From the IMG/VR virus record IMGVR_UViG_3300047279_000033, positions 1-37,479 of that record: 37,479 nt of DNA; one strand, 5' to 3'. The position numbers and the translations under genes were made by a program. This document shows, piece after piece, positions 3,102 to 36,502 of the stretch; within the stretch, counting starts at the first letter, position 1, and each line of letters starts with the position of its first letter. The DNA comes from a virus (lineage: Duplodnaviria > Caudoviricetes). The notes under the pieces were generated by a model. The model was not told where the DNA came from. It ran no database searches and saw only the letters and a list, made by a program, of their open reading frames with translations.

Positions 3102-3401
3102 TCACGCCCACACGCGGTGGGGGGCTGCTGGCTGAACGCTGATCGGCGCCAACGCAGCAAGCTGCTTGTCGGTGAAATCGCCGCGGAGGTTGGTGTGCCA
3201 GCCAGGGTATTCCACAACGGTGGGGATAGGCTCACCGGCCTTGTCCTTGGCTTTGCTGTAGCCCGTCACGCGGCTGAATGACCCGATGTGGTCGAGCGAA
3301 ACGCCCGCGACCGGGAAACCTTCTTCGTCGGTGACGCCCGCAGCAATCAGCGCAGCAAGCATTTCTACGTCGGTGTCGGTCATGAGATATAGGTCGATCA
3401 T
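3102..3401 (-). CDS. Small fibre-associated protein (possible chaperone)
   Basis: 99 aa; MIDLYL...GWHTNLRG...PHRVWA pattern; ATGA-coupled to the lectin gene. Confidence 0.6.
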   Translation of the reverse strand: MIDLYLMTDTDVEMLAALIAAGVTDEEGFPVAGVSLDHIGSFSRVTGYSKAKDKAGEPIPTVVEYPGWHTNLRGDFTDKQLAALAPISVQPAAPHRVWA

Positions 3402-4642
3402 ACGGTGAGCGCCTGTAGCTGTGCGTCGGTGAGACGGGTGGGGTAATATGTTATTCTCTGCATGTAGCCTGTGAGGCTGTTTGAGCCGCCCACGTCCGAT
3501 GAGCCGATGGACATACGGTCGGGGGAGGGTAGAGTGCCCGAAGTGTCGGTGGTAGCCGCGCCACCGTTTGCAGAAACAGCAAAATCGTTTGTCCGGTAAG
3601 CGTATGCAATTTTACGGACGGTGGTGTTTCCCAGTGACATAACGCCCTGAAGCCCCACCTGAGTAACACCAAGAACTACAGTCTGCGCTCTCCAGCCGGG
3701 GCCGTAACCAGCGGACAAAAGTAAGCTATGCTCAGAGTTAGACGCAGCCGCGCTGTCAATGTCATATATGCGCGCGAAGGCGTTACCGCCCGTTGGGGTG
3801 ACGCCCGTTGTGGTTGCGACAAACTGCGCGATAATTGTCCCTTGGCTCTGATTGTACCACGGCGAGAAAGCCGCCCCCGTTATTGACGCCACGTCAGCCG
3901 CGCGTGTGACCGTGGAGGCCACGGTGGGGATATGGCTGGTGGTGAACGCGCCGGTTTCGACCTGCGCGCCGTAGAGAAATACGCCCAAACCTATCGATGC
4001 GGGGGTATAAAGACTATCTATAGTTGTTACAGACGCTGGCTTCGGTGACAATGCAAAAACATAAGCCCCGCCGTCCGCGTCAGACGTTGCCGTTACTGTG
4101 CAACGATACCAGCCGTTGCCAGCATCGGTAATAGTGGCAGTTGTGGACGCAGAAGTTGCAACAATAGTCCCATTGCTCAAATCAACTAAAACGCCGTATG
4201 TAGTTGAGGCAAATGCTGTGTTTCCAAAGCTAAGCTGAGCGCGGGTATATTCACTTGCCTTCAGGTATGCAGAGCCAGTGTAAGTTGTGCTTATAGCACC
4301 TGAAAAACTTTTAAACCAACTGTGGCCATTACTAAGAATGTCTCCAGTAGCAAGTTTTGTAGCGTTGCTTGTCCCGTCCGGGCTGGTAGCAAAGTTTGCA
4401 GTGGCGGTTATCGAAAGGGCCGGAGATGCTGCCCAGCCCACCGTGCCGTCGCTGTACGTCATCAGGTTAACCCGCTGTTCTTCAATCAGCAGGCCCCGAG
4501 GAGCCAGCGTGGCAGGGTCAAAATCAAAACGCGGGGCGTTGATCGCCGCAGATTGGATCAAACCATTGCTGCCAACAAACGTAGCCGTGGTGGAGCGGGT
4601 GAACGTGATCAGATCAGCAAAGGCGTAATTGGTCAAAGGCAT
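3398..4642 (-). CDS. Virion adhesin/head-fibre protein with concanavalin A/LamG-like lectin domains
   Basis: 414 aa; ITFTRSTTATFV...PRFDFDP...GLLIEEQRVNL, GAQVETGAFTTSHIPT...TRAAD and YYPTRLTDAQLQALT motifs; GGAG RBS; AT-richer middle. Confidence 0.75.
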   Translation of the reverse strand: MPLTNYAFADLITFTRSTTATFVGSNGLIQSAAINAPRFDFDPATLAPRGLLIEEQRVNLMTYSDGTVGWAASPALSITATANFATSPDGTSNATKLATGDILSNGHSWFKSFSGAISTTYTGSAYLKASEYTRAQLSFGNTAFASTTYGVLVDLSNGTIVATSASTTATITDAGNGWYRCTVTATSDADGGAYVFALSPKPASVTTIDSLYTPASIGLGVFLYGAQVETGAFTTSHIPTVASTVTRAADVASITGAAFSPWYNQSQGTIIAQFVATTTGVTPTGGNAFARIYDIDSAAASNSEHSLLLSAGYGPGWRAQTVVLGVTQVGLQGVMSLGNTTVRKIAYAYRTNDFAVSANGGAATTDTSGTLPSPDRMSIGSSDVGGSNSLTGYMQRITYYPTRLTDAQLQALTV

Positions 4643-4645
4643 GAG

Positions 4646-4897
4646 TTAGCTCCAAGCCCAGAAGTTCGGGAAGCCTTGCCCGGCTGGATCGGCGGTGTAG
4701 GCGGTGTATGTCTGACCCGTGAAGTTTAAGTCAAGAGTTGCCCCATACGGCACGTTGCCGCCGATAAAATCAAGGATTAGCGTAGGCTCTCCGCCGTCAC
4801 GGCGCCCGCCGCCGCCCGCCCCGGTTCCCGAAGTAAGGGTAGCCGTGGTGACTATGCTTACGGACAAGCCGTTGCGGACGGGGATGCCAAAGCTCAT
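4646..4897 (-). CDS. 83-aa putative head-fibre anchor (N-terminal peptide, Gly linker, TLDLNF motif)
   Basis: Start MSFGIPVRNGL is ATGA-coupled to the stop of 4894..5196; same frame as the downstream lectin gene. Confidence 0.7.
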   Translation of the reverse strand: MSFGIPVRNGLSVSIVTTATLTSGTGAGGGGRRDGGEPTLILDFIGGNVPYGATLDLNFTGQTYTAYTADPAGQGFPNFWAWS

Positions 4898-5196
4898 CGA
4901 ATGTTGATCGGCTTGGCGTAGACGGTGCCGGATACGCCGATTTGCAGCGCGCTGACGCGCCACACACCGCCAGTTCCTTGCGGGACGGTGAAAGGAACCG
5001 GGGTAAACGCTGGGATGGGTGTGGCTGCGGATGTGGCCGTCACGCCTTCTCCTACCAGGATGTAGGAGTCAGTCGTAGACCACACCAGCACGCCTTGCGG
5101 GCCAGCGTTCCAGCCGGTCGTAGACCCTGCGGTGCCGGTATACGCAACAAGCTGCGTACCAAACCCGGCGTCATTCAAAGGGCGAAGCAGTTCCAT
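4894..5196 (-). CDS. Small beta-rich virion protein (possible head-spike base)
   Basis: 100 aa compact beta-sandwich-like sequence in the head module; AAGGA RBS. Confidence 0.6.
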   Translation of the reverse strand: MELLRPLNDAGFGTQLVAYTGTAGSTTGWNAGPQGVLVWSTTDSYILVGEGVTATSAATPIPAFTPVPFTVPQGTGGVWRVSALQIGVSGTVYAKPINIR

Positions 5197-5205
5197 AGTC
5201 GTTCC

Positions 5206-5568
5206 TTACGCCAGAAATTTGAGCTTATACAACGAGGTGTAATACAGCCCGAAAATTTCGTCGATAATGTTCTGGAGCGGGGTACACTCCTTATCGACGA
5301 CCTTATAGCGCATTTGCTCAAGGTCTTCTAGCTGCCCTTCAAGGAACTCGACCACGTTGTTGGTCTTTTTGGCCGACATCAGCGAGATCGGCCCGATCAG
5401 ACCGTACTTGCCTTGGTAGGCTTCGGCAAACTTGTCTGCCAGGTCGATGATGCCGTCATAGAACTCGTTCAGCGCGATGTGCTTGGCATAGCTGCGCGTG
5501 TTTAGGTGGGCGGAATGGGTCACATCCCGCGCCAGAAACAGCATCCCTACAAAGTCCGCGCACTTCAT
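5206..5568 (-). CDS. Ferritin/Dps-like four-helix protein (DUF5856-like)
   Basis: HSAHLNTRSYAKHIALNEFY...DKFAEAYQG resembles the Dps H...D-x3-E ferroxidase-site pattern; coupled to the portal stop. Confidence 0.7.
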   Translation of the reverse strand: MKCADFVGMLFLARDVTHSAHLNTRSYAKHIALNEFYDGIIDLADKFAEAYQGKYGLIGPISLMSAKKTNNVVEFLEGQLEDLEQMRYKVVDKECTPLQNIIDEIFGLYYTSLYKLKFLA

Positions 5569-26218: not shown

Positions 26219-27841
26219 TCAGCGCCTCACTGATTGTTCTGGTTGGCCATTGCGTTGCGCGCGGTCTTGCGCCATCACGTTCTGCTGCGCGACAGGAGAC
26301 AGAACGTAGAAGCCTGGGCCGCCGGGCTTCACGCCGCTGGCGCTGACCAGCGCGCGGTTCGCTTGGGTACGCGACATTTTGTTCGCAACGCCTCGCGCGG
26401 TAGCGCCAGCAGCTTGCGTTGCCAGCAGCCCCGCTGCGGTTTCTGGCGAGTAAGACGCGCCGATCCCTACGAAGGGCAGTTGCCCACCGAATACGCGGGC
26501 GCTGGGAGCCAAACGGCCCAGCCCCGACAAAACGCTTTGCGTGACCGTGCCGTTGGCAACCTTTTTGATCAGCTCCTGCGTTGGTTTATCAAACTTCGAC
26601 ATCTTACGGTCGTTCTTGGCTATGCGGCCAAACTCGTCCCGCAGCGCCCGCGAAAACGACTTCGTGCTGTCCGCTTGGCTAGAAGTTCTGTTGGCGGCGT
26701 CAAAAGCGTTCTCCAGCGTCTCCGTCTGGTACGCCGTTGACCGGACGCCGCGGGCTTGCTTGAGAAACGCATCGGCGGCGGCGGCGTCGCCCGACGTTGT
26801 CTGCGCCGGCGTCAGGTTGCTCATGAAGTCGTCGATGACATCATCCAGCGCCTTAACCATAGCGCGTTGTTCGGCGGTGCCGCTCTTGCCACCCGCTTCG
26901 CTGTACGGAAGATCGCGGATCGAACGCCTGAACTTTTCCAACATATCAAATGATATGGGTTTGCCGGATTTTTTACCGAACAAATCCAACGCTTTGTTGA
27001 CCAGCGTGTCGGTGTCTGGGTCGTATTTTAGGCTTTGCAATTTTGAAAGCGCAGCGGATTGCAGATCAGCCATCGCGGTCGGTGCGACGTTGACGTTCGC
27101 CGCTTCCATCTGTTTGTAGAGATTAGAAGATTTGTCTTTTAGTTGGCTGGCCGGAATAGCCTTGGGCGCGGGCGTAGCCGCCTTGAACCCTACGCCGCCA
27201 CCCGCCAGACCCAGACCCAGCAGCGCCGCCGGGTTTGTCACGTCAAGGAAGTTTGTTGCAATCGACGGTGCGCCTGCCGCGCCCGCACCCGCCGCAGCCT
27301 GACCGCGGATGTTCTGGCCCATAGCACGCATGAAGTTCTTGGCTTGGGGTGATGTCGCTTTGCTGGCCAAAGTCTGAAAAGCCTTGGCTTGTCCGCCGCC
27401 CGACGCTGCACCGGACAGAACATCGCTAAACACCTGTTCGCCTGGCGTCTCCGGTGCGCGGGTTGCGCCGATGCTTTGGTATCCCTGCTGCATGGCTTCA
27501 GATGGTAGCGAGACGCGCTGGCCGCCGAACAGCGGCGCAGCAAGGTTGTAGGCGCTTGTGCCAAGATCACCGAGGCCCAAGGCCAGCACACCGCCCGCAG
27601 CACCTGGCACAGCGCCGACACCGGCGAAAGGCGCGCCCGCCATCGCGCCCATGCCCGCGGCAGTCGCGTAGGGCAGCAGCGCGTTGGCGGCAACGCCGGC
27701 CACTTGCGTGGCTTTATCCATGCCCGTGCGCGGGGCTTTGGTGCGCGGCATTGCCTTCTCAACAACGCCCAGCCCAGCATACGGGTCTGCGCCGCCCTGT
27801 TCGTAAGTGCCTAGCCCGGCGTAAGGATCGTTCTGTTTCAT
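26219..27841 (-). CDS. Internal virion/ejection protein 3
   Basis: Gly/Ala-rich hydrophobic stretches and helical body; ATGA-coupled start MKQNDPYAGL. Confidence 0.65.
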   Translation of the reverse strand: MKQNDPYAGLGTYEQGGADPYAGLGVVEKAMPRTKAPRTGMDKATQVAGVAANALLPYATAAGMGAMAGAPFAGVGAVPGAAGGVLALGLGDLGTSAYNLAAPLFGGQRVSLPSEAMQQGYQSIGATRAPETPGEQVFSDVLSGAASGGGQAKAFQTLASKATSPQAKNFMRAMGQNIRGQAAAGAGAAGAPSIATNFLDVTNPAALLGLGLAGGGVGFKAATPAPKAIPASQLKDKSSNLYKQMEAANVNVAPTAMADLQSAALSKLQSLKYDPDTDTLVNKALDLFGKKSGKPISFDMLEKFRRSIRDLPYSEAGGKSGTAEQRAMVKALDDVIDDFMSNLTPAQTTSGDAAAADAFLKQARGVRSTAYQTETLENAFDAANRTSSQADSTKSFSRALRDEFGRIAKNDRKMSKFDKPTQELIKKVANGTVTQSVLSGLGRLAPSARVFGGQLPFVGIGASYSPETAAGLLATQAAGATARGVANKMSRTQANRALVSASGVKPGGPGFYVLSPVAQQNVMAQDRAQRNGQPEQSVRR

Positions 27842-29532
27842 GGCCGGGTCATGACCTCCCCGTTGTCCGCGCGTCTCCAACGCTTGATGCTAGGATCAGC
27901 ACGCACCTGATCCGGCGTCAAAGTTGGAATCACCGGCGTCTGGCGACCGGCAGACGCAGTAGGTGTCTTAGGCTCCATGCCCGCGCCGCGCAGAAGGATC
28001 GGCAAAACCACGTTTTGCCAAGCAGCCAATCGAACGTTAGCGGGTGTGTTTCCGTTGGCAATATCCGCCATGGTGTCCGAAACCAACTGAACATCTCTAT
28101 CTGAAACCGCGGAACCCAATTTTCCTCTCAATTTTTCAAACGTCATATTTTTTTCTATGCCGCGCAACTGTTGCAGCGCCACACGCCCCGGCGTACCTTT
28201 ACCAGTTGCAGCGCCCATGATCTCGGAACCAATCATCTCCACCGCGCCGCTGGTGGACGCTTCGATCAGTTCTTCTACGCGGCTTTTGCCTGTTTTGGCG
28301 TTGTATCCGATAATTGGTAGGACAAGAGCCGCTGTTTTTCTGCGCGCGGCTTCTGCAACCGTTTGGCCGCCAGCAGGCGCCGCTGCGGCAACAGGTGTGC
28401 GCGCCACAGAAGCTGCCCGACCCATGCCCGGCCCCGTCTCGACATGAACGATGTTTTTGTTTTTCTCCAGCACCACATCGTAACCCTGCGCCTTAAGCGG
28501 CGACAGGTTCTTGAACAGATCGTCAACCGACTGCCCAGCAGCCGGCCTGAAATCGCGGGCGTTGTCGGACATATGAAGGCTGTTCGGAACGCCGCCGACT
28601 TCAGCGTTGCGTTCTGGCGTGCGTGCGCGCCCAGTGACAACAACACCGGGGTTAAGTTGGCCTACCAACTGTTCGATCTGCGGGCCTCGCGCTGTAGCCA
28701 TAGGTGCAGGGGCAGCCGCAGGACGGGGAGCGGCAATCGCGGCATTTACGGCGCGGGGGCCTGGCAGGCCCTCAGTCGTAGCAAGCGCGGCTGCGTTCTG
28801 AATAGCGTAAGGCGACACAACGCCGGTATCCGTCCGCGTGATTGTGCGCGGCTGCGGAACCAGCCCCGCCCGCGCATCACCCATTGTAGCTTCGCTGGCC
28901 ACGCCCGTAACCGGGTTGACGTTATACAGCGTGCTATCAACAACTTGCGGACTCATTTTGATTGGTTCTGGCGAAGCCGTGATCCGAAACAACTCGCTGC
29001 CAAAAGTAGGTGAGTTTGCGTTGTCGTCGATAAAGACTTTTGCATCACCGACTTGCTCGGCTTTTATATTAGGCGCGACATATTTAAGCGCGTTTCTTGC
29101 GCTTTCTGACCCCGCGATAAACTCCAACGCAAACACCTTGCGTTGGTTTGCGTCGGGCATTTTTGAAAGTTGCCCCATAACGCCTTCATATTCGGCGGGG
29201 TTCATACCAAGTGACTTAAACGTATCAATCGTTTGCGCCAAACCGTTGTCGCTTGGATCGCGAAGAAGACCTATCAAACCGTTACCAATCGCTCCCGCCC
29301 GCACTTTGGCTCGTTCTTGATCGTCAGCGACAATCTGACGTGCTTCGCCCCGCGCGGCGCGGCCTTCAGCCGCACGTTGAATTTCCATCGTCTGTTGCGC
29401 TATTGCCGCCTGACGTTCAGCAGCGCGCTGCTGCGACATCATATTGATCATCTGCGCGCCCTGCTGGATCGCAGGCGCCAAGAAGTTGCCTTGCGGTGCG
29501 CGGGCCTGAAGGGCGATTGCTTGGTTAGCCAT
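27838..29532 (-). CDS. Internal virion/ejection protein 2 with M15-type peptidase domain
   Basis: 564 aa; VTGRARTPERNAEVGGVPNSLHMSDNARD...HVE. Confidence 0.75.
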   Translation of the reverse strand: MANQAIALQARAPQGNFLAPAIQQGAQMINMMSQQRAAERQAAIAQQTMEIQRAAEGRAARGEARQIVADDQERAKVRAGAIGNGLIGLLRDPSDNGLAQTIDTFKSLGMNPAEYEGVMGQLSKMPDANQRKVFALEFIAGSESARNALKYVAPNIKAEQVGDAKVFIDDNANSPTFGSELFRITASPEPIKMSPQVVDSTLYNVNPVTGVASEATMGDARAGLVPQPRTITRTDTGVVSPYAIQNAAALATTEGLPGPRAVNAAIAAPRPAAAPAPMATARGPQIEQLVGQLNPGVVVTGRARTPERNAEVGGVPNSLHMSDNARDFRPAAGQSVDDLFKNLSPLKAQGYDVVLEKNKNIVHVETGPGMGRAASVARTPVAAAAPAGGQTVAEAARRKTAALVLPIIGYNAKTGKSRVEELIEASTSGAVEMIGSEIMGAATGKGTPGRVALQQLRGIEKNMTFEKLRGKLGSAVSDRDVQLVSDTMADIANGNTPANVRLAAWQNVVLPILLRGAGMEPKTPTASAGRQTPVIPTLTPDQVRADPSIKRWRRADNGEVMTRP

Positions 29533-29541
29533 TGTCCGTCC

Positions 29542-30339
29542 TTAGTTACCGTTCAAATACCCGCTGATAGTCATGGGGGATTCTTGGCGAGACATGAAGT
29601 TGTTGATCGGGCCGCCGGGCGCGCGACCGCCGGGCAGCCCTTGGTTGTAATAGTTCATCTGCGCTTGCATCAGCGGGTACGACGCCGCCGCCTGACCGAT
29701 GCTGCTCAGTGCGCCGCCCAGTGCGTTAGCCTGACCGACGTAGCCAGACGCGCGGGCTTGCCCGGCATTCATCAGGTTAGCCTGTTCGTTCTGGCTTGAT
29801 TGACCGATATTGCCGGTCATCACGTTGGTTGCCGACTGGCCGGAACCCATTAGCGACTGAAGCGGGTTCAGACGTGCGCTGCGCTCGATCTGGTAGCGGT
29901 TGAAAGCGTTGCCGTATTCTTGGCTGGCCGATTCCTGCCCGAACCGCTGAATGCCCTTCAGCGTGGGGCCTGACTGCAATAGACCACGGGCTGCGGCTGA
30001 CCGCTCTAGCGCCTTCATGCCCTCCGACTGGCGGAAGGCGTAGCCTGGGTCTTGCTCAAAATCAGACATGCCAAACGGCTTGGCCAGACTGCCGTAGCCT
30101 TCTGCCGACGCATCGCCGCCGATCCCCAGCAACTGCATGATCTGCTCTTGCGCGGTCAGACCACCTTGGCGGAACGGTTCTTGCAGCCCGATCTGGCGCT
30201 CCAGCATCCGTTCGTTGGATGCCTGCGCGTCACGCGCCGCCTGCTCCTGCGCGCGGGCAGCCTTCTTGGCCCCGCCGCCGGCGATTGCGCCGCTACCGAG
30301 CGCGGCGGCTCCTGCGATAAGGGCGGAGGCAACAGCCAT
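29542..30339 (-). CDS. Ejection/DNA transfer protein 1
   Basis: Hydrophobic Gly/Ala N-terminus and DPGYAFR...ERSAAARG...SG motif; first of three ejection genes. Confidence 0.75.
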   Translation of the reverse strand: MAVASALIAGAAALGSGAIAGGGAKKAARAQEQAARDAQASNERMLERQIGLQEPFRQGGLTAQEQIMQLLGIGGDASAEGYGSLAKPFGMSDFEQDPGYAFRQSEGMKALERSAAARGLLQSGPTLKGIQRFGQESASQEYGNAFNRYQIERSARLNPLQSLMGSGQSATNVMTGNIGQSSQNEQANLMNAGQARASGYVGQANALGGALSSIGQAAASYPLMQAQMNYYNQGLPGGRAPGGPINNFMSRQESPMTISGYLNGN

Positions 30340-30803
30340 TACACCAATCCTTTTATAAATGTGCGCTCCATCGGGCGGAAACCGGATCGAGCGTACATTT
30401 TTGCCATGCGTTCGACATTCACATCATGCAACGCTATCATAAATACCGCAACCGCGCCATTTTCGACAGCCCAATTTTCGATGTGCTTGTACATACTCTG
30501 CGCCGCCCCGCTACCACGGGACTTCGGCGCCAGCCACCACCACATCTCCTGCACGACAAAACTGCCAGGGCTGAAGTACATGGGGTACAGCGCCGCCCCG
30601 GCGATGCCGACAGGCACGCCATCAACTTCCGCCAGCAGCACCAAGAAATTGTCTTTGTCGATCAAGTTTGACAAGAACGCCGCGGTGCCGTCTGGGTCAA
30701 ACGGAATGATGCCACTTGCCGGCATGTTGGCGTGGAACGCCGCCGCCATCTCGACGTAAGCCGGTAGGTCTTCCTCGACCATAGGGCGGACTACAGTAGC
30801 CAT
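30339..30803 (-). CDS. GNAT family acetyltransferase
   Basis: VVRPM, WWLAPKSRGSGAA acetyl-CoA motif, MYARSGF. Confidence 0.85.
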   Translation of the reverse strand: MATVVRPMVEEDLPAYVEMAAAFHANMPASGIIPFDPDGTAAFLSNLIDKDNFLVLLAEVDGVPVGIAGAALYPMYFSPGSFVVQEMWWWLAPKSRGSGAAQSMYKHIENWAVENGAVAVFMIALHDVNVERMAKMYARSGFRPMERTFIKGLV

Positions 30804-33151: not shown

Positions 33152-34769
33152 TGGTGCCGCTTATCATCAATTCGGCGTCGATGATCACCATCTTGACCGG
33201 GTCGGTGCCTGACAACTCGTACACGCGGTCACGCAGTTTCATCGTCATGCCCAGGCGGCGCCAGATAGCGCGCTGTCCATATCCGCCGATCCTGCCAATG
33301 GATGTCCAATGCTCGTTCGACCATGTGTGGCCGCCGTCATCCGACCAGCGCAACATCGCCTGCGGGTTAGCGCCCTGCACGGTCGGGGCGGTCACTTCGA
33401 TGTAGTCGCCTGACTCCGTGATAAGGAAGTCGCCGGTTGAATCAGCGGCGTAGGCGGTGTATGTCTGGCCGGTAAAGTCTAAATCAAGCGTTAATTCATC
33501 TAGAGGTAATGGCGCGTTGCTACTTTCGGTCAGCAACAAACCAAAAACGTCGAACGGATCAACGCCTGACAGCCCCACGCCGGACTCGAACATGATCTGG
33601 AGGCTGTGCTGCGCCGTGCGCTTCAGGTTGTTCTGGCCGGTCGGCAGCGCCCGCCACGACCGCAGCCACTTTTGCGGCGTGCCGTTGTCGGCGTAGGTTG
33701 TCAGGTCAAAGGTGTAGATGTTGGCGTTCAGGTGATCGCCGATGACGATGTTGCCGAGGAAGTTGCACTGGTTGTTGCCGCGGTGGCGCGAGAACACGCC
33801 TTCGTTGAAATAGGCCCGCTCATGCCAAGCCCCGGTGGCGACATCCAGCACCCACGTCGTGTTGCCAGACGGGAAGTTCAGAACGTAGAAGGCGTGGCCG
33901 TCTTGCTGGTAGGTGTAAGCCACCGCGTCGGACATATTGCTGTACTGCTGGATTTGCCACTCGACCGCGTGCGTGGACACGCGCTGGCCGACGTAGCCGT
34001 TTGCCCGGTAGACGATACCCTGACCGCGCGCGTCAGCACCCAGCCAGAACACGCCGTTGTCCACCTTGGCGATGGAATACGGTGCGACGCAGCCGATCTC
34101 GTTGAACGCGCCTTGGATGCGGGCCAGCGGAAAGTCTGCCGTGCCGGCGTTGTACCAGACTTCGGCGCTGTCCGTGCCGAACACCCACACTTCGCGGTGG
34201 TCAACGATCAGGCCGACAATGCCGTCCGGTGATCCTTCGGCGCTGACAAAATCCAGCGGGTCGATCTGCGTGCCATCCAGCAAGCTGGAGACGTACAGCC
34301 GCTGGCTGTTAGGTGGGTTGAACACGAAATAGCCGTCAAGATACCCGACCGTTACCGCGCCAGGAAAGTCAGGGTCGGTGATTTGCACAAACGTGTTGGT
34401 TGATTCGGTGTAGACAAAGGCGTCCGGGTTGCACGCGAAGATGATCTGGTTGCCGTTGTCGGCGATGGACACCGGCCCGGTGCCAGTGACGGTTCCCAGC
34501 AACACCGGCGTGCCGGTCAGCGAGGACAGTTTGTAGACCTCGTTGCCTGACACGACGTAGAAGTCCGCGCCTTGCGTTTGGTGCGCCCACAGCCCGCGGA
34601 TCGGCCCGGTGCCAACGGCCTGCTGTAGCTTCAGCCCAGGCGCGCGGTTGAGGAACGCAGGCATCTGCCCACCCTCTGGCACAACCTCTGGAAAGAGATT
34701 GACCATGCGCGCGTCCGCAGCGTTGATGCTGCGGGCGACATAGCTTGAGCCGAGGATGGGCGACTTCAT
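33144..34769 (-). CDS. Tail hub/nozzle, P22 gp10-like DNA stabilisation protein
   Basis: 541 aa beta-propeller-like; SAEGSPD, YQQDGHAFYVLNFP, MLRWSDDGGHTWS, WRRLG motifs. Confidence 0.88.
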   Translation of the reverse strand: MKSPILGSSYVARSINAADARMVNLFPEVVPEGGQMPAFLNRAPGLKLQQAVGTGPIRGLWAHQTQGADFYVVSGNEVYKLSSLTGTPVLLGTVTGTGPVSIADNGNQIIFACNPDAFVYTESTNTFVQITDPDFPGAVTVGYLDGYFVFNPPNSQRLYVSSLLDGTQIDPLDFVSAEGSPDGIVGLIVDHREVWVFGTDSAEVWYNAGTADFPLARIQGAFNEIGCVAPYSIAKVDNGVFWLGADARGQGIVYRANGYVGQRVSTHAVEWQIQQYSNMSDAVAYTYQQDGHAFYVLNFPSGNTTWVLDVATGAWHERAYFNEGVFSRHRGNNQCNFLGNIVIGDHLNANIYTFDLTTYADNGTPQKWLRSWRALPTGQNNLKRTAQHSLQIMFESGVGLSGVDPFDVFGLLLTESSNAPLPLDELTLDLDFTGQTYTAYAADSTGDFLITESGDYIEVTAPTVQGANPQAMLRWSDDGGHTWSNEHWTSIGRIGGYGQRAIWRRLGMTMKLRDRVYELSGTDPVKMVIIDAELMISGTNA

Positions 34770-35113: not shown

Positions 35114-36502
35114 TTAGTGAAGGTTAACCCACGCGCCGGCGGCAAACACTTGCAGCTTGTCGGTCGTGACGTTGTACAGGATAAGACCTTCTTGCGTTGC
35201 GCCACCGATAGCGTCGCGCTGCGCGGTAGACATGCGCGGCGGTAGAAAGCCTTTCGTCGTTGATGAAACGTCCAGTAGGGCAGAGGCATCTGGGCTGCTC
35301 GTTCCAATCCCAACGCTGCCCGTGCTGTCGATACGCATCCGCTCTGAGCCATTGACTAACCAGAAAACCACATTGCTAGAGGCATCAAAACTCATGCGGT
35401 TATTAGAGTTGGCTCCATAGATCGCAATGGGGCTTGCGGATTGGGTAAAGCTAAAAATTGGTGTGCCTGCGGCATTAGATGCAACGAAGTTATCGTCGCT
35501 CTGAAGCAATAGGCTGGCGGTGGCAGAGCCTGCGGCATTGCGAAACGACAGGGTTTGATTGTTGCCAATTCGAACGTTGCCGCCAACCACATCTAGCTTT
35601 GCGCCAGGGCTGCTCGTCCCAAGCCCAACGTTGCCATTATTATCAATACGCATTTTTTCAGCAAGAACATCGGCAGTGCGCGTAAAGAAAGACAGGTATG
35701 TGGTCACGTAGTTGACATCAAGCGGACCGCACTGAACAAGGCCGGCATTTTTACCAACGCCAGTCGTGTCTGTGCCTTGAAGAAGAAGGCCCGTGCTTTT
35801 GGTAGTGTTGTTAGCGGCGTTATCATTTCTAACAACAAGCGGCGAGTCACCAGCAGCGGTATTTGTCCGCGTCAGTGACGTACCAAACACATCTAGCTTT
35901 GCAATCGGGCTGCTCGTACCAATCCCGACGTTGCCACTGGCGTCAATCCGCATACGTTCGATATTGGCAGTGTAAAATTGAACGATCCCGCCCGTGCCAG
36001 AAAGTTGCCCAAGGCTTAGATTGGCGTTGTTGACGGTAGTGATAAGCCTACCGTTGCCGCTGGCATCCACATCAAGAGTCAGTGGCCCTGCGCTGTTGGC
36101 TGCGTTGTTAAATGTAATCTGCCCACCTTCAGAGCCATCGCCACGAACGTTTATGTTGCCGGTCGACAATTCGCCGTTTACGTCTAGTTTGTTTGTTGGG
36201 TTGCTTGTCCCAATTCCGACGTTGCCCGCGCTGGTAATACGCATAGCTTCCGCGCCGCCTTCGCTGAAGGCAAGCGTATCCGCAGCAGGCGACCACATCC
36301 CGGTGTTGAGGTCGCCGGTGAAGGTGTACGACGGCGTGGCGACCGCGCCGAGGCCGTTAGCGATGTACGGTATGGTGTTCGCGCTCAGAAGGTTGTTGAT
36401 CGCCGTGCGCTTGGTAACGCCGCCCTGCACGACTGGCATTTCCTCAGTGCCAGCCAGCGGGACTGTAACTGCGGGAAGTTGAGAGATTTTGACGTTAGCC
36501 AT
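35114..36502 (-). CDS. Tail fibre with four MRIxxxGxVGxGTSxP repeats
   Basis: MANVKISQLP N-terminus; four repeat units separated by variable knobs; no S74 chaperone domain seen. Confidence 0.8.
   Translation of the reverse strand: MANVKISQLPAVTVPLAGTEEMPVVQGGVTKRTAINNLLSANTIPYIANGLGAVATPSYTFTGDLNTGMWSPAADTLAFSEGGAEAMRITSAGNVGIGTSNPTNKLDVNGELSTGNINVRGDGSEGGQITFNNAANSAGPLTLDVDASGNGRLITTVNNANLSLGQLSGTGGIVQFYTANIERMRIDASGNVGIGTSSPIAKLDVFGTSLTRTNTAAGDSPLVVRNDNAANNTTKSTGLLLQGTDTTGVGKNAGLVQCGPLDVNYVTTYLSFFTRTADVLAEKMRIDNNGNVGLGTSSPGAKLDVVGGNVRIGNNQTLSFRNAAGSATASLLLQSDDNFVASNAAGTPIFSFTQSASPIAIYGANSNNRMSFDASSNVVFWLVNGSERMRIDSTGSVGIGTSSPDASALLDVSSTTKGFLPPRMSTAQRDAIGGATQEGLILYNVTTDKLQVFAAGAWVNLH

Follow-up and report, generated by a model that had tools for sequence, protein, structure and literature searches.

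The window analysed here is the whole genome of a P22-like podovirus (37,479 bases). Pfam and PHROG searches identify its portal, scaffold and coat genes, a gp4-like adaptor and a gp10-like nozzle, and all genes are encoded on the minus strand. The phage may come from fresh water, as 99% of the sampled words of its genome are present in two freshwater metagenome runs, a possible source. The interval between the portal and scaffold genes holds four genes, whose products are 100, 83, 414 and 99 aa long (Table 1). A DUF5856 gene (5206–5568) adjoins the portal gene. Elsewhere, a peptidase M15 domain lies within the gene next to the DNA-ejection gene (27838–29532), and a GNAT acetyltransferase is seen in the tail module (30339–30803). 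The terminal overlap of the circular genome (1–82 and 37398–37479), which covers the start of the 68-aa gene, is imperfect. The difference between its two copies suggests circularisation from a mixed population.

Table 1. Features of the lectin locus and of the gp10-like gene in the window.
Feature	Position	Strand	Remark
Small jelly-roll protein, 100 aa, likely capsid-vertex spike base holding the anchor	4894..5196	-	role putative
Anchor, 83 aa: N-terminal peptide common to unsplit fibres, Gly-rich linker, two LxLxF strands	4646..4897	-	
First strand motif of the anchor, PTLILDF	4766..4786	-	resembles the cis strand of unsplit fibres
Docking tag, anchor copy, TLDLNFTGQTYTAYTAD	4688..4738	-	candidate
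Shine-Dalgarno-like GGAG for the lectin	4650..4653	-	within the last codons of the anchor
Headless lectin-like fibre, 414 aa: inserted carbohydrate-binding-module-like domain and ConA/LamG-like domain without its first strand	3398..4642	-	
Companion gene after the lectin, 99 aa	3102..3401	-	
P22 gp10-like tail nozzle (head closure Hc3), 541 aa	33144..34769	-	
Variable display loop of gp10	33357..33572	-	about 72 aa here, 9–79 aa in relatives
Docking tag, gp10 copy, TLDLDFTGQTYTAYAAD, residues 427–443	33441..33491	-	candidate; between two LxTE repeats

The 83-aa ORF, here called the anchor, is read from an ATG at 4897. The sequence-only reading had reported in this ORF the peptide listed in Table 1, together with the shorter PTLILDF, and a second copy of the peptide in the gp10-like tail protein. 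Re-reading of the coordinates places both copies of the peptide where they had been put. The two copies are identical at 15 of 17 aa and 43 of 51 nt, and six of the eight nucleotide differences are synonymous, exactly as counted before. The similarity ends at the edges of the peptide, and none is seen beyond it. Among the best 12 pairs of a six-frame self-comparison, the only other 17-aa pairs with 14–15 identities come from the terminal overlap and from internal repeats of one fibre gene. One of the two residues that distinguish the anchor tag from the gp10 tag (D to N) is common in gp10 tags. An exact back-translated search of viral contigs with a 14-residue peptide gave no match.

The 414-aa protein, here called the lectin, is homologous over residues 11–283 to Rcc01080 (E = 8e-27), its only solved relative, which forms the head spike fibre in the Rhodobacter gene transfer agent (RcGTA). 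It also matches PHROG 5939, a tail protein (E = 1e-81), and a Pfam search with it gave no match. The sequence-only reading held that fibres of this type usually carry an LxLxF-type strand in the same chain. By eye, 46 of the 120 best homologues have such a strand shortly before ITFTR, 62 (the query included) start 9–12 residues before ITFTR, without the strand, and 12 are truncated or unreadable. The alignment thus bears out this statement for 46 of the 120 homologues, all of them unsplit, and for two cultured-phage loci, S-CAM4 and EmilHeitz. The N-terminus without the strand, here called headless, was not found among the cultured phages searched.

Many unsplit homologues begin with residues of the 83-aa ORF, and the first 12 residues are the same. 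Relative L290 shares 99% capsid-protein identity with the window and has an unsplit gene between the same neighbours. Because the unsplit forms share its start and the slot of L290 is unsplit, the 83-aa ORF is taken to be the N-terminus that was cut from the fibre. P0078 and L171 represent intermediates, fused and with both motifs. The homologues of the anchor number 32 and are 68–93 aa long, with both strands conserved in the 23 that were aligned. PTLILDF is the more conserved of the two motifs, its P, L, I, D and F being invariant in these 23, and it may serve as another site of docking.

The lectin starts at MPLTNYAFADLITFTRS, 3 nt past the TAA of the small ORF. The stop and the separate start, from which a split gene had been proposed, are kept in all 13 IMG/VR contigs that match the first 14 codons of the lectin, each with a separate small ORF upstream. 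Because the same split is present in 13 of 13 contigs, it is no assembly error. The lectin would most likely be made from its own start. It might otherwise be speculated that read-through or frameshifting yields an anchor–lectin fusion that serves the head, so that only the tail copy, or neither copy, acts in trans. The two ORFs share a reading frame here, as they do in 34 of 51 anchor–lectin junctions, and three relatives are fused with an internal Met. An excess of in-frame junctions would also result if point stops had produced the split. The other 17 junctions are out of frame, with both other frames represented, the anchor stop is TAA in 40 of the 51, and a Shine-Dalgarno-like motif precedes 53 of 59 distinct headless starts. 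These facts make the fusion very unlikely.

The AlphaFold2 model of the unsplit homologue P0020 (mean pLDDT 75.8, 51 rows) contains two jelly-roll domains. For residues 57–277 of the model, the phage Pa193 tail fibre is a match (Z 21.2, rmsd 2.1, 182 aligned). The range 29–441 matches residues 7–195 of the CBM40 structure 6er3 (Z 18.2, rmsd 2.4, 168 aligned), and AbnA 5hp6 is matched as well (Z 18.8, rmsd 2.6, 189 aligned). The strand of P0020 corresponds to residues 32–35 (block pLDDT 80) and stands at the beginning of a structural match extending as far as the C-terminus. Because the match spans 29–441, LxLxF is the predicted first strand of a discontinuous ConA/LamG-like domain, the rest of which is the C-terminal third. 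The lectin of the window is predicted to be without this first strand. Its fold and its homology to RcGTA suggest that it may bind sugar.

Modelling of the lectin with the peptide, as had been proposed, places the gp10 peptide as a strand beside the last strand of the lectin. The complex with a 36-aa gp10 peptide scores 0.94, against 0.11 for the best of three controls. Of 157 solved complexes, 116 attain the mark for this score, as do 2 of 215 mismatched pairs; these counts apply only approximately to the alignments prepared for this analysis. At least 91% of contacts are common to the lectin–peptide runs, and the pLDDT of the partner is at least 67. The L, L and F of the modelled tag are laid antiparallel along the last strand, against Y399, I397 and Q395, while the QxY half of the tag touches lectin residues 1–8, which are also part of the interface. 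The score is not independent of the cis-strand fold model of P0020. The complex model supports the geometry more than the binding, because a domain paired with the very strand that it is missing may score well through resemblance to intact folds.

The sequence-only reading had proposed donor-strand docking, and its three computational checks (strand in cis, modelled complex, co-occurrence) all turned out in its favour. By prediction only, the acceptor is without one strand, the strand comes from another chain, and the gp10 peptide occupies the slot. The models do not predict that the strand is needed for folding. The lectin is modelled confidently with unrelated partners (pLDDT 91–92, against 93–94 with the tag, values that express model confidence and not stability), so the tag may clamp the lectin instead. 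The tag might bind in trans merely as an edge-strand clamp (β-augmentation) on a lectin that folds alone, with the same display logic. These pLDDT values fit such a clamp, and so does the dedicated N-terminal segment of the headless lectins, which the second half of the tag touches. However, the strand aligns with the opening residues of intact CBM40 domains, and the L, L and F of the tag are invariant, as expected of core-facing residues. Mere clamping can be regarded as unlikely.

The tail protein that carries the second copy matches PHROG 578 (E = 1e-128) and the structures 9vyg (E = 6e-39) and 7eeq (E = 2e-34), with Pfam PF11134 below the cut-off. Its gene sits after that of the gp4-like adaptor, and it has the characters of a P22 gp10-like nozzle. 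In relatives, the loop that holds the tag bears nothing, LxTE repeats, the tag, or both. Because its length varies, the loop is probably exposed on the surface. In the close relatives L060–L066, the two LxTE repeats are present and the tag is absent. L063, with a capsid protein 98% identical to that of the window, likewise has two LxTE repeats and no tag, and its lectin slot holds a different cassette. Seventeen gp10 tags, with 17–78% identity to that of the window, have invariant L, L and F. Other inserts of the gp10 loop (Ser/Ala-rich, PGHIYL-type, or short) are seen in L072, L374, L379, L380 and L157.

The gp10 copy could be considered as a neutral insertion of anchor DNA into a tolerant loop, with no lectin on the tail. 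This would fit the high DNA identity of the two copies in this genome (43/51), the many inserts that the loop tolerates, and L263, which has a headless lectin and an anchor and no gp10 tag. It would not fit the synonymous bias, which is seen between the two copies (6/8) and again in the core tag codons of three relatives (8 synonymous against 3 changed). Besides, divergent tags in several gp10 lineages retain the motif only, and no tagged gp10 is found without a lectin where the lectin slot is covered. Neutral insertion has therefore only a slight chance of being correct.

Whether the gp10 insert occurs only with a split lectin was another point raised by the sequence-only reading. The loop is readable in 203 loci, 56 of which also contain portal and capsid genes, and these give 38 clusters at 95% gp10 identity. 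With the lectin classes of L263, L302 and L169 assigned by hand, the nine clusters with tagged gp10 comprise eight with a headless lectin, one with a fused lectin with internal Met, and none without a lectin. The 29 untagged clusters comprise one with a headless lectin (L263), two with a cis lectin and 26 with no lectin. The tag thus accompanies the headless lectin in 8 of 9 tagged against 1 of 29 untagged clusters (Fisher p = 2e-6), and p is 9e-4 when the test is limited to the 31 clusters that had been brought in solely through gp10 or capsid similarity. Kinship weakens these statistics: the gp10 tree, built without the loop, has five tag changes and four independent pairs, all concordant (p = 0.125), or three of four concordant if L169 is counted as not headless (p = 0.25). 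A quick capsid tree has eight changes. Most of the contigs are fragments. No hidden lectin was found in 32 whole records, of which 11 are at least 90% complete; the five positive records were all already known. A metagenome scan gave 55 matches, mostly unrelated, and no new informative cluster. The idea that gp10 and anchor tags match each other within a genome was rejected as not general (p = 0.03 with and 0.6 without the clade of the window, n = 5).

The LxTE repeats of the window (33405–33434 and 33525–33539) likely represent a candidate second tag system, together with the fibre at 35114–36502. In 39 loci, the repeats and fibres with a MAxxKISxLP N-terminus are both present in 11 and both absent in 21, while four have only the repeats and three only the fibre (Fisher p = 3e-4, with rough patterns and kinship ignored). 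In L233, both tags lie in one gene, which is followed by a MAxxKISxLP-type fibre.

Judged by sequence, the tag system is wider than first seen and includes further carriers, lectin chains and a T4-like phage. A matrix of gp10 tags gives 93 matches outside gp10 and lectins in loci with headless lectins (1.4 Mb), and no match outside gp10 in lectin-free loci (2.5 Mb). The profile of gp10 tags, run on 1.84 billion proteins, gives ten matches, nine of which are non-gp10 proteins with repeated tags. These are eight small anchor-like proteins and one LamG protein with three tags, and the tenth match is false. The best match is the anchor family of the window itself.

Distinct headless starts number 83, and 80 of them are assessable. 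According to a script, 69 of the 80 have a tag just upstream or in frame. The tag is provided by an ORF that is not a lectin and has between one and three motifs (51 starts), by a fused lectin with two N-terminal motifs (10), or by a lectin with a C-terminal tag (5, one of them by eye), and three starts are in-frame fusions with internal Met. No adjacent tag is detected for 11 starts, of which eight follow another lectin. For the other three, one is a script miss by eye and two are from loci of 647 bases. In L169 (16629–18221), L202, L207 and L285, the lectin is fused and has an internal Met where headless lectins start, and one such gene could yield a fused and a free form.

Some loci show how tags and lectins are combined. 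In L200, L257 and L259, there are two headless genes to one anchor, which has two motifs. L024 (4733–10544) chains three lectins via C-terminal tags. In the head module of the T4-like L003 (9178–11794), the second of two similar small genes ends in the tag and is followed by a headless lectin. In L233, a 173-aa gene that follows the gp4-like gene has the tag close to its end, and upstream of it come a homologue of the RcGTA base Rcc01079, an anchor and a headless lectin. Tandem lectins in which the upstream one is tag-ended and the next is headless occur at L024:4733–10544, L013:9167–12645, L023:9169–11680 and L206:4182–10387. They are candidates for pilus-like chains or branches.

The location of the anchor on the head is suggested by RcGTA and by relatives. 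The 100-aa protein upstream of the anchor is modelled as all-beta (pLDDT 91.7) and matches generic jelly rolls only, with a best Z of 7.4. It was tried as the counterpart of Rcc01079 and set aside, as no sequence, profile or specific fold match was found. In L233, the gene in the same position, which precedes the anchor and the headless lectin, is a homologue of Rcc01079 (E = 9e-4; E = 9e-6 to the spike base 8cjz). By eye, the N-terminus of the anchor loosely resembles the alternating hydrophobic/Gly peptide of RcGTA, and those of P0155, P0157 and L233 are closer to it. The 100-aa protein is likely the spike base that holds the anchor on capsid vertices. The proposed head location of the anchor and lectin rests on homology and relatives, because the upstream gene of the window is no detectable homologue of Rcc01079.

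The companion gene belongs to PHROG 18574, of unknown function, and its product has no named look-alike. It follows the lectin in 11 of the 13 split loci and in further loci, including the T4-like L003, and is likely a fibre-bound accessory. The 110-aa gene after the lateral fibre gene of phage EmilHeitz looks like it by eye. Since the companion travels with the lectin, the tag could bind a partner of this kind, which would then bridge to the lectin. Against such bridging, the companion also follows unsplit lectins (L290), and the tag is homologous to the cis strand of the lectin itself and is modelled in that slot. Bridging is thus extremely improbable.

We consider it quite probable that the lectin fibre is without its first strand, and that the LxLxF-xx-QxY tag on other virion proteins supplies this strand and so decorates head and tail. 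The tag would provide the missing first beta-strand in trans and clip the fibre onto its carrier. The anchor, as the severed N-terminus of the ancestral head spike fibre, would be sited on capsid vertices, and the variable loop of the gp10 nozzle would be the tail carrier of the same tag. One adhesin gene could then decorate both head and tail. The positions on the virion and the stoichiometry are presumed here. A broader reading has about even chances in our view: a tag-and-catcher display in aquatic phages, in which a tag of about 12 residues sits on unrelated carriers and headless lectins are interchangeable. Tandem tags would set the valency, chained lectins would form branched adhesins, and the gp10 loop would bear several tags, including the orthogonal LxTE tag, which would serve a different class of fibre. 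The carriers in this reading are head-spike anchors, podovirus nozzle loops, lectin C-termini, a protein of the T4-like phage and a protein beside a neck gene.

Several known systems resemble parts of this arrangement. The RcGTA head spike consists of a pentameric base, Rcc01079, and the fibre Rcc01080 (PDB 6TB9; PMC7296036, PMC10218006). The first ten residues of the fibre fix it to the capsid vertices, and it binds capsule (PMC7296036). The lectin of the window is homologous to this fibre, and both systems have a small jelly-roll gene upstream and a short N-terminal peptide on a flexible linker. The RcGTA fibre is described as one 325-aa chain held by its own N-terminus, whereas the anchor and lectin of the window are separate genes. 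The lectin of the window also has an extra C-terminal LamG-like domain outside the matched region, and its tag recurs in the tail. In phage Tuc2009, a 25-residue extension of BppU completes the beta-sheet of the separately encoded carbohydrate-binding BppA (PMC4742702). There, the domain is titin-like, one carrier acts at one site, and the extension is a C-terminal hairpin. In contrast, the tag of the window concerns a ConA/LamG domain, and its motif recurs on various carriers that are unrelated, in one case within an internal loop.

In the rope fibres of Bas63, A1002 and GP4, the available text describes an extended peptide that completes or augments the beta-sandwiches of fibres in trans (GP4 via PMC12609058 and PMC13730344). 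The collar rope of Bas63 completes whisker sandwiches (PMC12609058), and the nozzle-rope protein gp39 of A1002 carries 11 fibre dimers by augmented sheets (PMC13730344). The peptide of A1002 is part of a podophage nozzle protein, and each rope offers several sites. The subunits are dimers of 140–171 aa at one virion site, whereas the acceptor of the window is a 414-aa two-domain protein. As far as the available text of the rope papers goes, they report neither a fibre-derived split-gene tag nor a tag shared by head and tail. By its predicted completion in trans, the system of the window works like the rope fibres and is not a member of them. In the branched receptor-binding proteins of podophages that infect Klebsiella (KP32, K11 and KP34), a conserved short peptide also docks an adhesin on the virion (PMC13352976). 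The polarity there is opposite, as the adhesin bears the peptide and the carrier has the socket.

In chaperone-usher pili, a missing strand is supplied by another chain through donor-strand complementation. The lectins of L013, L023 and L024, which are chained head to tail via C-terminal tags, resemble this. The phage system differs in its fold, in the first rather than the last strand being missing, in having no chaperone or usher, and in its virion context. Neither a LamG first-strand tag nor one tag common to head and tail carriers was found in the literature searched, which consisted mostly of the main texts of non-subscription papers. The principle of strand completion is known for single joints; its portability over unrelated carriers and the evolutionary series were not found in print.

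The loci preserve an evolutionary series, with the strand in cis, the fused double motif, the split, and the moved tag. If the proposed mechanism is true, adhesins could be added, or moved between head and tail, by an insertion of 30 codons, with the fold of the carrier unchanged. It would also offer a small non-covalent tag/catcher pair, and two soluble recombinant proteins suffice for testing. The rules are readable from sequence (tag present, lectin headless) and could serve to annotate thousands of uncharacterised genes of aquatic phages. The same mechanism, if true, would explain how one gene serves several virion positions.
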